Shown here piece by piece: positions 10,637 through 19,915 of a stretch of 64,000 bases of DNA. How positions within the stretch are numbered: the first letter of the stretch is position 1; the number at the start of each line of letters is the position of its first letter. This DNA is from Escherichia phage ECp13, in the sequence record PP274704.1. One strand, given 5' to 3'. A program made the translations under genes and the position numbers. The notes below the pieces were generated by a model. It had not been told where the DNA came from. It made no database searches and was given only the letters and a program-made list of their open reading frames with translations.

Positions 10637-10721
10637 GAATTATTTGTTATTATTAACTCATATCGCACTGATTAATACCCTCTATCATCAAGGGTTCTTG
10701 TTTGAGAGCCTTTGTTAATAA

Positions 10722-10781
10722 TTTTGGTAGAGCGCCTGATTTGGGATCAGGAGGTCCAAGGTTCAAATCCTTGTATGGAGA
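10722..10781 (+). tRNA. tRNA-Pro-like fragment (anticodon UGG), 5' part not foldable
   Basis: Perfect anticodon arm CCTGA/TTTGGGA/TCAGG and T-arm CAAGG/TTCAAAT/CCTTG, but no D-stem or acceptor 5' strand upstream. Confidence 0.3.
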
Positions 10782-10783
10782 CT

Positions 10784-10883
10784 GGAGGCGTGGCAGAGTG
10801 GTTTAATGCACCGGTCTTGAAAACCGGCAGTCGCTCCGGCGACTCATACTAGGTCGTAGGTTCGATCCCTACTGCCTCGACCA
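10784..10883 (+). tRNA. tRNA-Ser-like (anticodon UGA) with encoded CCA, atypically long variable region
   Basis: Acceptor GGAGGCG, anticodon arm CCGGT/CTTGAAA/ACCGG, T-arm GTAGG/TTCGATC/CCTAC, 3' ACCA; about 10 extra nt before T-stem. Confidence 0.45.
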
Positions 10884-16774: not shown

Positions 16775-17248
16775 ATGAAAACATATCAAGAATTTATCAC
16801 TGAAGCAGCTATTAATTCTCAAATTATCGCTGAATCTTTTATTGATCTTTTGAAATTTAAAAAAGGTCAAAAAATCACTGCTGTATTGGATGATGGTACA
16901 GAAGTTGAGATGGATGTACAGGGATATAATTATGCAGTAGATGGAAAACTGTATAATAAATCTCATGCTAAATTTGATTCATTTGACGATTTTGTTAATA
17001 CAGTTGAAGATGAAAAAACTCGTAGATCCATTGCAACTGGCGACGCTAAGGTTCTTATGGCACATGGTCATGAACGTATCCGCGCGAAGCAGAATAAAAT
17101 GGGTGAAGATAATTTTGCATTAGTTGGTTATCAATCTGGTAAACAAACTTATGGTTATCAGCGTACTGCTACCATGTATAACAAAAATGGTAAAATCGCT
17201 TTCGTGAATAGCAAAGGTTCTATTCAGTACGTCAAATCATTCAAATAA
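16775..17248 (+). CDS. internal-protein-like protein with capsid targeting sequence
   Basis: 157 aa; N-terminus MKTYQEFITEAAINS matches the recalled T4 IP targeting sequence MKTYQEFIAEA. Confidence 0.65.
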   Translation: MKTYQEFITEAAINSQIIAESFIDLLKFKKGQKITAVLDDGTEVEMDVQGYNYAVDGKLYNKSHAKFDSFDDFVNTVEDEKTRRSIATGDAKVLMAHGHERIRAKQNKMGEDNFALVGYQSGKQTYGYQRTATMYNKNGKIAFVNSKGSIQYVKSFK

Positions 17249-17353
17249 GCAAATAAGAAATATGGGAACAAGCTGGACCTCATGATTCTATGAGGGATTC
17301 CCGCCAACCTGTAATAAGGTCGAGCCCGAGTGCGGTAATGGGTAAATACAGAA

Positions 17354-17941
17354 ATGGACAATTCATGCGCCATGGAATGGCCCAAATTTAGAGAGAATAA
17401 AATGAGAACATTTTTAACTGGTCCTTATCTATCCCTGATGAATGCTTTTACATACCATTCTGATGCTAGAGTAGAAGAAATTTGTAAAAACGATTATATC
17501 CTACCATTTGAAGACTTACTCAAACAGTATTGCACACTTCGACTAGATGGTGGACGTCAATCCGGTAAATCAACTGCTGTGACTAACTTTGCTGCTAATT
17601 GGCTGTATGATGGTGGAACAGTTATTGTTCTTTCTAATACTTCAGCTTACGCTAAAATTTCTGCAGGCCACATTAAAAAAGAATTTTCTCGTTATTCTAG
17701 TGACGATATTCGATTCCGCTTATTTACTGATTCTGTCCGTAGTTTTGTTGGTAATAGAGGCAGCAAGTTCAGAGGTTTATCGCTTTCGCGGATTTTGTAT
17801 ATAATCGATGAGCCGGTTAAATCTCCCGATATGGATAAAATTTACGATATTCATATTGAAACTGTACAATACTGTTGCAATAGTAAATGTTGCACTGGTG
17901 GTATTACTCGTCCGCAGTTTTTCGTAATCGGAATGCAATGA
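17354..17941 (+). CDS. P-loop NTPase-like protein
   Basis: Walker A-like GGRQSGKST; start uncertain (in-frame ATGs at 17354, 17372, 17402). Confidence 0.5.
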   Translation: MDNSCAMEWPKFRENKMRTFLTGPYLSLMNAFTYHSDARVEEICKNDYILPFEDLLKQYCTLRLDGGRQSGKSTAVTNFAANWLYDGGTVIVLSNTSAYAKISAGHIKKEFSRYSSDDIRFRLFTDSVRSFVGNRGSKFRGLSLSRILYIIDEPVKSPDMDKIYDIHIETVQYCCNSKCCTGGITRPQFFVIGMQ

Positions 17942-18267
17942 TGACAGACACACAGCTTTTCGAATATCTTTATTTTTCGCCAAAAACTATTAAAAATAAA
18001 TTGGTGAATCATTTTGAAATTTTGGCAAATAACAACGTCTTGAGCGAATTTTATCCTAAGCAATACAAATTACAAAAAGGTGTATTCAAAGGATGCAGAG
18101 TTTTGTGTACTGCTCCTAATGCAAGATTAATGAATAAAATTCCATATTTTACCATGGAATTTATTGATGGACCTTTTAAAGGACTAATCACCCAAAGTTT
18201 AATGGCATATGATTCTGAGCCATTTTTAATTAAAGAACAGTCTTGGATAAATTTATTTTCTAATTGA
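17938..18267 (+). CDS. hypothetical protein
   Basis: ATG overlapping preceding stop (ATGATGA); 109 aa. Confidence 0.45.
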   Translation: MMTDTQLFEYLYFSPKTIKNKLVNHFEILANNNVLSEFYPKQYKLQKGVFKGCRVLCTAPNARLMNKIPYFTMEFIDGPFKGLITQSLMAYDSEPFLIKEQSWINLFSN

Positions 18268-18273
18268 GGTTAT

Positions 18274-18636
18274 ATGAAAGCATATCAAATTCTTGAAGGC
18301 ACACATAAAGGTACTATTTATTTTGAAGATGGTATTCAAGCACGAATTATTGTTTCTAAAACCTTTAAAGAGGACTCTTTTGTAGACCCAGAAATTTTCT
18401 ACGGTTTGCACACCCGTGAAATTGAAATTGAACCACAGCCTACAGTTAAAATTGAAGGTGGTCAGCACCTGAACGTTAACGTTCTGCGTCGTGAAACTCT
18501 GGAAGATGCAGTTAAGCATCCGGAAAAATATCCGCAGCTGACCATCCGTGTATCCGGTTATGCAGTTCGCTTTAACTCTCTGACTCCGGAACAGCAGCGC
18601 GACGTTATCGCTCGTACCTTTACTGAGAGCTTGTAA
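18274..18636 (+). CDS. autonomous glycyl radical cofactor (GrcA/YfiD-like, T4 Y06I-like)
   Basis: 120 aa; C-terminal glycyl-radical motif [25 protein letters not shown]; GC-rich host-like codons in the 3' half. Confidence 0.75.
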
Positions 18637-19453: not shown

Positions 19454-19915
19454 ATGACTATCAATACAGAAGTTTTTATCCGTCGAAATAAGCTTCGTCG
19501 TCACTTTGAGTCGGAGTTTCGTCAAATTAACAATGAGATTCGTGAGGCATCAAAAGCAGCAGGAGTCTCATCGTTTCATCTAAAATATTCTCAGCATCTT
19601 CTTGATCGTGCAATTCAACGGGAGATTGATGAGACATATGTTTTTGAATTATTCCACAAAATAAAAGACCATGTTTTAGAAGTTAATGAATTCCTGAGTA
19701 TGCCTCCGCGTCCTGATATTGACGAGGATTTTATTGATGGGGTTGAATATCGTCCTGGACGTTTAGAAATCACAGATGGAAATCTTTGGCTTGGATTTAC
19801 GGTTTGTAAACCTAATGCGAAGTTCAAAGACCCGTCGCTTCAATGTAGGATGGCAATTATCAACAGTCGTCGTTTACCAGGAAAGGCTTCTAAAGCAGTA
19901 ATTAAAACTCAATGA
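19454..19915 (+). CDS. regB: site-specific endoribonuclease RegB
   Basis: 153 aa; sequence and length match recalled T4 RegB. Confidence 0.88.
   Translation: MTINTEVFIRRNKLRRHFESEFRQINNEIREASKAAGVSSFHLKYSQHLLDRAIQREIDETYVFELFHKIKDHVLEVNEFLSMPPRPDIDEDFIDGVEYRPGRLEITDGNLWLGFTVCKPNAKFKDPSLQCRMAIINSRRLPGKASKAVIKTQ

Follow-up and report, generated by a model that had tools for sequence, protein, structure and literature searches.

Gene vs.8 of a Tequatrovirus probably encodes a stand-alone P-loop NTPase related to the terminase ATPase core and is preceded by a candidate structured RNA

The open reading frame (ORF) at 17354..17941 (+) of a 64,000-nucleotide stretch of Escherichia phage ECp13 (PP274704.1; hereafter the window) is the ortholog of the early gene vs.8 of phage T4 (NP_049732, UniProt P13318). 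Its product is probably a stand-alone, single-domain P-loop nucleoside triphosphatase (NTPase) of the ASCE type, the core of which, extending from the Walker A to the Walker B motif, is homologous to N-subdomain I of the large terminase protein gp17; this assessment covers the identity, the ATPase activity and the terminase relation taken together. The features of the coding region that carry this reading are the following:

17354..17941 (+), the ORF as delimited mechanically, 195 amino acids (aa), of which the first 16 codons are not conserved as protein
17402..17941 (+), the vs.8 coding sequence with its best-supported start, 179 aa plus stop, a probable single-domain P-loop NTPase
17549..17575 (+), Walker A motif or P-loop, GGRQSGKST, residues 50-58 of 179, with the terminase-type P-loop Arg52; invariant in close homologs
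17792..17815 (+), Walker B motif, ILYIIDEP, residues 131-138, with the acidic pair D136-E137 of the catalytic type

The window comes from a Tequatrovirus. Over the 2-kb stretch around the ORF its identity to Shigella phage Sfk20 (Tequatrovirus pss1) is 99.7%, and this stretch has matches in 841 phage records. The original prediction, which was made from the sequence, had described the product as an uncharacterised P-loop protein of a gene not recognised from T4, citing the strings GGRQSGKST, TVIVLSNTS and CCNSKCCTGG, all three of which are indeed present in the frame. The statement on T4 proved wrong: the protein is 91.6% identical to T4 Vs.8 over 179 residues (tblastn), and the gene lies in the conserved order denV-(ip)-vs.8-vs.7-vs.6, with ip denoting an internal-protein gene, while on the T4 map denV, vs.8 and vs.7 adjoin in that order. 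Residues 3-179 of 179 match phrog_1488 (function unknown) end to end, at profile positions 2-177 of 177 (E 4.7e-78), and the record of phage NR1 names the gene “Vs.8 conserved hypothetical protein” by BLAST to NP_049732. The Vs.8 protein was detected by tblastn in 1010 of 50,697 phage records, all of them from T4-like phages of enterobacteria. The homology search thereby identified a known T-even protein with a predicted NTPase fold, and not one lacking such a fold, which had been named as the contrary outcome. Of the label “uncharacterised P-loop protein”, the P-loop stands and “uncharacterised” now holds only in part; vs.8 has already been described in the literature (PMC13601566).

The GenBank product names for this one protein are in conflict (“large terminase subunit”, “endoribonuclease RegB domain-containing protein”, “endoribonuclease” and “hypothetical”), and none of the terminase, RegB or endoribonuclease names (MW341595, MW749001, PQ657823, KP869105) is backed by the profile searches. 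A RegB identity was considered and rejected, no RegB family being found among the Vs.8 matches in Pfam, PHROG and NCBIfam scans; it is the ORF at 19454..19915 that occupies the same position as the gene annotated RegB in related records. The NCBIfam scan gave no match for either Vs.8 or Vs.7, the product of the following gene, and PADLOC returned only generic AAA noise for the former and nothing for the latter.

The Walker A-like GGRQSGKST is genuine and not a chance match, since DGGRQSGK is invariant in 21 close homologs, and the Walker B motif ILYIIDEP, which was absent from the original prediction, is nearly invariant among close homologs as well. When the distant members of the Vs.8 family are included, the P-loop arginine is found in 31 of 32 members, GK[ST] in 27 and [DE]E in 26. 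A C-terminal strand ending in G-x-Q is also conserved. That selection has preserved the lysine of the Walker A, the arginine of the P-loop and the Asp-Glu of the Walker B makes it most likely that Vs.8 binds and hydrolyses ATP. One subgroup, with GH[ST][ST] at the P-loop (P0056, P0058, P0060 and P0065 of alignment A2), retains the P-loop arginine and looks, by its motifs, like a catalytically altered or inactive branch of the family.

When 1.84 billion representative proteins were searched exhaustively with the family profile, only 50 clusters emerged, nearly all of 100-190 aa with a few of up to 259 aa, which is consistent with stand-alone proteins. The AlphaFold2 (AF2) model of Vs.8, with a predicted local distance difference test score (pLDDT) of 76 and a predicted template modelling score (pTM) of 0.76, shows five beta-strands alternating with helices and fits an alpha/beta NTPase fold. 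A Foldseek check had been proposed with the original prediction, and in the PDB it picked out helicases of SF1/SF2, by their RecA-like domain 1, along with phi29 gp16 and P74-26 TerL, by their ATPase domains, as the best matches, at template modelling (TM) scores of only 0.35-0.45. Small phage proteins (~150-175 aa) in BFVD superpose on the model with a Foldseek probability of 1.0 and TM-scores of 0.5-0.75; these come from T4-like and jumbo phages (Proteus phiP4-3, Aeromonas Aes012, Pseudomonas 201phi2-1, PhiPA3 and EL, Vibrio JSF10) and share only 11-24% identity with Vs.8, the likeness being one of size and predicted structure.

The relation to the large terminase emerges from profile comparisons. 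The secondary PHROGs match of Vs.8 is phrog_2, the terminase large subunit (E 5.3e-6), and hhalign places residues 32-144 of the Vs.8 family onto residues 142-263 of T4 gp17 with a probability of 90.8% (E 1.2e-6), pairing GRQSGK[ST] with SRQLGKT, FRG with VRG, and LYIIDE with MIYIDE. An arginine in the P-loop is a hallmark of terminase Walker A motifs such as that of gp17. Vs.8 and N-subdomain I of gp17 have in common an xRQxGK[ST] Walker A, an RG motif before the Walker B and an hhhhDE Walker B, and for Vs.8 a RecA-like alpha/beta fold is predicted as well. A nuclease domain and subdomain II are missing from Vs.8, as is a conserved Q motif for adenine binding; it is 179 aa long against the 610 aa of gp17, and it is made early rather than late. 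The chain stops at residue 179, just past the next strand after the Walker B, which leaves out the RNase H-like nuclease domain and ATPase subdomain II, and the aligned members of the family are all of about 160-185 aa.

The records of Sfk20 and Roth79, which annotate a “large terminase subunit”, the weak resemblance to the TerL ATPase in sequence and profile comparisons, and the structural similarity to the ATPase domains of phi29 gp16 and P74-26 TerL all agree with a genuine packaging enzyme, i.e., a second or auxiliary large terminase subunit. Such an assignment is nevertheless very improbable in view of the missing nuclease domain, subdomain II and conserved Q motif, a Pfam terminase score that is under the cut-off, early expression apart from the late packaging genes, the confinement of the family to ~50 clusters of small stand-alone proteins, and the fact that T4 has its own gp17. 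Vs.8 is best described as related to the terminase ATPase core and probably working like it, but not as a terminase. This relationship has already been published (PMC13601566, Nat Commun 2026), where the ATPase-like vs.8 product is called uncharacterised and its homology to the ATPase domain of the terminase is reported, and it is confirmed independently here.

In T4, vs.8 and the following gene, vs.7, are both early at the RNA and the protein level, whereas the terminase is late (supplements of PMC9697503). The second gene of the pair is located in the window as follows:

17938..18267 (+), vs.7, 109 aa, phrog_2049 (function unknown), its ATG overlapping the vs.8 stop codon (ATGA)

This overlap implies translational coupling. 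Among 35 related loci from IMG/VR that carry vs.8, the vs.8 stop overlaps the next start (ATGA or TAATG) in 32, and a relative of Vs.7 was detected downstream by tblastn in 29, with two more recognised by eye from a DGPF-type N-terminus. Karamvirus, Dhakavirus and a T4-like phage of Klebsiella show the arrangement too; in Serratia phage WSPA a separate, unidentified gene comes after vs.8. Taken together, these junctions suggest that the two proteins form a module and are produced in a fixed ratio. In the Vs.7-like proteins, the conserved part is a C-terminal “DGPF” domain, and the N-terminal halves vary between genera. Vs.7 has no Pfam match and only a PHROG of unknown function, and the search for its homologs returned mostly frameshifted fragments and few usable sequences. 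A scan for sigma-70 promoters and terminators placed no site upstream of vs.8 and gave nothing in excess of what shuffled sequences yield.

With regard to function, vs.8 was picked out when T4 proteins were screened with AlphaFold 3 (AF3) against EcAvs2, an immune sensor; the model has it in the terminase pocket of the sensor, and its co-expression with EcAvs2 was toxic (PMC13601566). The role of vs.8 during infection was left open in that study, and an anti-defence origin was suggested as possible. The surrounding region is an accessory one, rich in counter-defence genes: vs.3 is TadIV-1, a protein directed against type IV Thoeris, and the internal protein IPIII is needed by T4 to infect ECOR17 and has been proposed as an anti-defence factor. 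Vs.8 most likely has a role in phage-host conflict, as we infer from these observations. In the mechanism proposed here, Vs.8 would be made early, unlike the late terminase, as an active accessory NTPase built on the terminase ATPase core, and by analogy with other single RecA-like domains it would probably act either as an oligomer or in concert with Vs.7, to which it is translationally coupled. The ATP-loaded surface of Vs.8 would resemble that of the terminase enough for a terminase sensor to bind it, and as a look-alike of the terminase the protein could also engage factors that recognise the terminase ATPase. Ksap1 and Ksap2, the non-terminase activators of Avs2 (PMC13601566), are, like Vs.8, small and lineage-restricted, with a terminase-ATPase-like beta-sheet core and no known function in the phage; by comparison with their published description, Vs.8 differs in that its Walker A and Walker B can still be recognised.

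A decoy or counter-defence role of Vs.8 is a tentative proposal, the balance of evidence leaning away from it. In its most explicit form, Vs.8 would be mainly a molecular mimic of the terminase ATPase that has to bind ATP but not to turn it over, and that occupies or blunts terminase sensors (Avs1-3, Upx), with sensors such as EcAvs2 having since adapted to use it as a trigger. The placement by AF3 in the terminase pocket, the toxicity together with EcAvs2 and the anti-defence origin raised by the authors (PMC13601566) would agree with this, as would the expression of Vs.8 ahead of the terminase, the position of the gene among counter-defence genes, and the loss of catalytic residues with retention of the fold in some distant members. 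What makes the explicit form rather unlikely is that the catalytic glutamate and the Walker B are conserved in most members, which is not required of a pure binder, that the only effect observed is the activation, not the inhibition, of a defence system, and that Vs.8 does not engage the full Avs2 interface (PMC13601566). An active accessory NTPase is the preferred reading.

It has to be noted that several observations weigh against the reading of Vs.8 as a terminase-related NTPase acting in phage-host conflict. Four distant members carry GH[ST][ST] in place of GK[ST] and have no DE pair, so that catalysis is not universal in the family. The Foldseek TM-scores to the PDB matches are weak, the sequence-profile search of the PDB returned no terminase and only marginal SRP-receptor and TraB-like matches (E ~0.05), and the Pfam Terminase_6N score of 14.6 bits lies below the cut-off of 22, so that Vs.8 is not a member of Terminase_6N. 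The toxicity with EcAvs2 is the sole functional datum; it reflects an activation of immunity and not its evasion, and it was obtained by co-expression and not by infection. Among the Part I genes expressed individually, only vs.3 impaired type IV Thoeris, and Vs.8 did not. Finally, the AF2 model of Vs.7, built from 3 sequences, had a pLDDT of 43 and was discarded, so that the partner gives no functional clue.

The ORF contains in-frame ATG codons at 17354, 17372 and 17402, and the original prediction had rightly called its start ambiguous from the sequence alone, inasmuch as annotators of near-identical phages have used each of the three: Kelasse the first (under a RegB-domain name), Sfk20 the second (as “large terminase subunit”) and NR1 the third. 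The comparison of homologs moves the 5' boundary away from 17354. Met17 of the 195-aa ORF, encoded at 17402, is invariant and is the start of the alignment in all 21 of 21 homologs (41-94% identity), in which the preceding residues are missing or unrelated, and the first 48 nucleotides (nt) belong to a conserved non-coding element. The conserved start is preceded by a ribosome-binding candidate:

17391..17395 (+), Shine-Dalgarno (SD)-like purine-rich GAGAG, read from the sequence, 6 nt 5' of the ATG at 17402

AGGA, GGA or GAGA stretches are found at the equivalent site before the conserved ATG in T4, E33, CC31, Roth79 and WSPA. ATG 17402 is thus the best-supported candidate for the true start of Vs.8, predicting a protein of 179 aa.

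Translation from 17354 or 17372 would instead make the extra 10-16 residues (MDNSCAMEWPKF or MEWPKFRENK) a real N-terminal extension. The frame is open from 17354 without interruption, longer starts are used in the Kelasse and Sfk20 records, clusters P0001, P0003, P0008 and P0010 are called at 194-196 aa, and T4 Vs.8 itself is annotated as 219 aa, which adds 40 N-terminal residues that conservation does not support; the T4 counterpart of ATG 17402 (the Met of MRTFLT) is at ~64792, 120 nt downstream of the start annotated at 64912. Against this, most homologs have no such extension or an unrelated one, conservation sets in exactly at Met17, and neither the 17354 nor the 17372 ATG has an SD-like sequence before it. 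Other phages have CCAAGG or CCACGG in the place of ATG 17372, and some have AGG or AAG in that of ATG 17354. The upstream DNA of T4 is joined to the vs.8 frame only through the loss of a stop codon and a 9-nt duplication, while the same DNA in the window lies out of that frame, in a separate 33-aa frame at 17290..17391. Since this DNA is read in different frames in T4 and in the window, its conservation is not protein conservation; the DNA of the supposed extension is conserved instead at the level of nucleotides and structure, as the candidate RNA element described below. A longer protein is accordingly regarded as highly unlikely.

The first 48 nt of the ORF and the 96 nt before it (17258..17392) are, on balance, interpreted as non-coding: an undescribed RNA of ~100-135 nt, comprising an invariant arm of 30 nt and two nested pseudoknots, that would represent a new class of widely shared phage RNA. 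Its proposed parts are the following:

17258..17392 (+), conserved structured RNA (candidate), filling the gap between the internal-protein-like gene and vs.8; covariance-model score 140.8 bits
17264-17268/17298-17302 (+), RNA helix P1
17278-17283/17290-17295 (+), RNA hairpin
17304-17309/17334-17341 (+), RNA helix P2, enclosing the invariant ~30-nt arm
17273-17275 (CUG) with 17349-17351 (CAG) (+), RNA pseudoknot, crossing P1
17369-17371/17379-17381 (+), RNA 3' hairpin

Both of the false start codons, 17354 and 17372, lie inside the element. The sequence ACCUGUAAnAAGGUCGAGCCCAAGUGCGGUAA upstream of vs.8 is identical across genera (T4, CC31, E33 and others) whose Vs.8 proteins share only ~40% identity. 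A covariance model was built from 15 copies, and further copies were collected through pattern and protein-anchored scans; by this model, 34 of the 35 vs.8-carrying loci have the element on the same strand as vs.8, where it usually fills the gap before vs.8 and at times stands one small gene further upstream or in tandem. The T4 copy (NC_000866, ~64810..64944, complement) falls within the annotated N-terminus of vs.8.

In the alignment fitted to the model, 94.8% of the cells pair, against 80.7% after shuffling, with double changes in 14 of 20 pairs; in an independent MAFFT alignment with a manually defined structure the figures are 90.3% against 81.8% after shuffling and 24-41% in slid controls. 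The covariation resides mostly in P1 and the outer part of P2, and G-U pairs put the structure on the plus strand. The pseudoknot triplets, one at a fixed offset before an invariant CCUC and its complement at a near-fixed offset after P2, are complementary in 24 of 26 distinct sequence combinations (cross-class control 10%) and fall into six classes (CAC/GUG, CCG/CGG, CUG/CAG, CCA/UGG, CGC/GCG and UCG/CGA). A further helix, P5 (ACAU/AUGU), fits the type B and C copies and not those of type A. When the intergenic region was folded as a single sequence, the z-score was near 0 for either strand, and the structure is therefore visible only by comparison.

Several other explanations of the conserved DNA were tried and rejected. 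A conserved leader peptide (the PVIRSSPSAV frame) disagrees with the absence of a start codon from at least 11 of 38 copies, with ORFs that range from 15 to 80 aa and with the differing frames of the 3' motif, and an early promoter within the element (GTTTAC, type B) has no conserved -10 after it. Rfam returned no match for four sequence variants at E up to 10 or up to 1, the hepatitis delta virus (HDV) models included. The element does resemble HDV-like ribozymes in the order of its strands (P1, P2 5', hairpin, P1 3', P4-like arm, P2 3'), which is that of a nested double pseudoknot, and in starting immediately after the upstream stop codon. Unlike the HDV ribozymes, it has no equivalent of the invariant C of J4/2, the junction reading GUAAAUA in T4 as in the window and GUAUA in the Vequintavirus copies, and its conservation is highest at the apex of the P4-like arm, an arm that HDV ribozymes can do without. 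Membership of the HDV-like class was rejected because the conserved junction C is missing. The element could act as a ribozyme-like processing element, as a protector of mRNA ends or as a ligand for a conserved host factor.

The 3' part of the element forms a module of its own, of the T4 type (AUGGAC ... GCC-AAGGAAU-GGC), which keeps its place immediately ahead of vs.8 also in loci where the remainder of the element lies further upstream (L008, L050, L051, L058). In the window it reads as follows:

17354..17383 (+), 3' module with two GGA motifs, AUGGAC and AAGGAA/AUGGAA, the latter in the loop of a GCC/GGC hairpin

The two GGA motifs are ~18 nt apart and lie 20-45 nt before the start of vs.8. 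The pair resembles CsrA binding sites, which raises the idea, on the strength of the sequence, that the module may serve in a putative control of vs.8 translation.

Copies of the core occur outside the T4-like phages as well. In a Vequintavirus of the rV5-like type (Escherichia phage nomo, L085 1606-1703) it scores 53.9 bits and lies in an unannotated gap ~550 nt upstream of the tRNA cluster, and in a Kagunavirus-like siphophage it scores 42.3 bits and follows the endolysin gene, likewise in a gap that bears no annotation. It was also observed at L086 1534-1639 (Escherichia phage EcoPhCCP1), L083 1852-1964 (-) and L069 1255-1355. The core in the metagenomic L083 is followed by an intrinsic terminator, and that in L069 by a stem-loop and then a perfect TTGACA-17-TAAAAT promoter; from these contexts a free-standing small RNA gene is suggested, i.e., the core would exist as a free-standing RNA in unrelated coliphages. 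Tandem copies were seen at L041 2722-2989, L054 2771-3038 and L082 304-571, with the arm of the second copy changed (GGCC-AGUCCGCG-ACGG), and in L021 and L058 the element precedes an internal-protein-like gene and not vs.8. The element may travel with gene cassettes in this hyperplastic region.

As to the remaining features of the locus, the original prediction had placed the gene between an internal-protein-like and a GrcA-like gene, which holds for the upstream neighbour; on the other side vs.7 intervenes before the GrcA-like gene. It had also drawn attention to a Cys-rich C-terminus, which is present and turned out not to be a defining feature, in that it varies even within Tequatrovirus and is absent in other genera. 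These features are:

16775..17248 (+), internal-virion-protein-like gene (context), phrog_3155 (E 3e-101), Pfam DUF7412
17873..17902 (+), Cys-rich CCNSKCCTGG, a lineage-specific variable loop and no family feature, its alignment columns not being conserved
18274..18636 (+), vs.6, GrcA-like glycyl-radical protein (context), Pfam Gly_radical (E 2.6e-18), annotated GrcA in relatives

The T4 and ECp13 loci share the Vs.8 motifs, the upstream RNA element, denV upstream and vs.7, vs.6 and regB downstream, and differ in that an internal-protein-like gene is inserted between denV and vs.8 in the window. Rfam finds only two tRNA genes in the whole window, at 10710..10880 (+). T4 carries eight tRNAs, i.e., more than the window. 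With four cysteines in CCNSKCCTGG, a weak conotoxin-like Pfam match (E 0.006, under the cut-off) and a GrcA-like gene two genes downstream, it could be imagined that the C-terminus binds metal or serves in redox chemistry and, as such a module, sets the function of Vs.8, perhaps tied to the neighbouring glycyl-radical gene. This has almost nothing to recommend it, since the cysteines vary within Tequatrovirus (CCRSYNAETGE, CCRVDCYKNN) and are missing in other genera, the segment is predicted to be disordered (residues 173-184 of the ORF, which cover it, have an AF2 pLDDT below 50), and vs.6 is missing or elsewhere in several loci that retain vs.8.

The result for the ORF is a corrected start and the unification of the competing GenBank names under T4 Vs.8, a known conserved early gene product of the T-even phages. 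Should it be confirmed, the upstream RNA, as a pseudoknotted element common to unrelated phage families and absent from Rfam, would outweigh the result for the ORF itself, and it explains why gene callers keep extending vs.8. With its true N-terminus, its conserved catalytic residues and its downstream coupling in hand, clean biochemical and genetic tests of Vs.8 become possible, and the protein is of interest in that it is made early, resembles the late packaging ATPase and can be recognised by an immune sensor.

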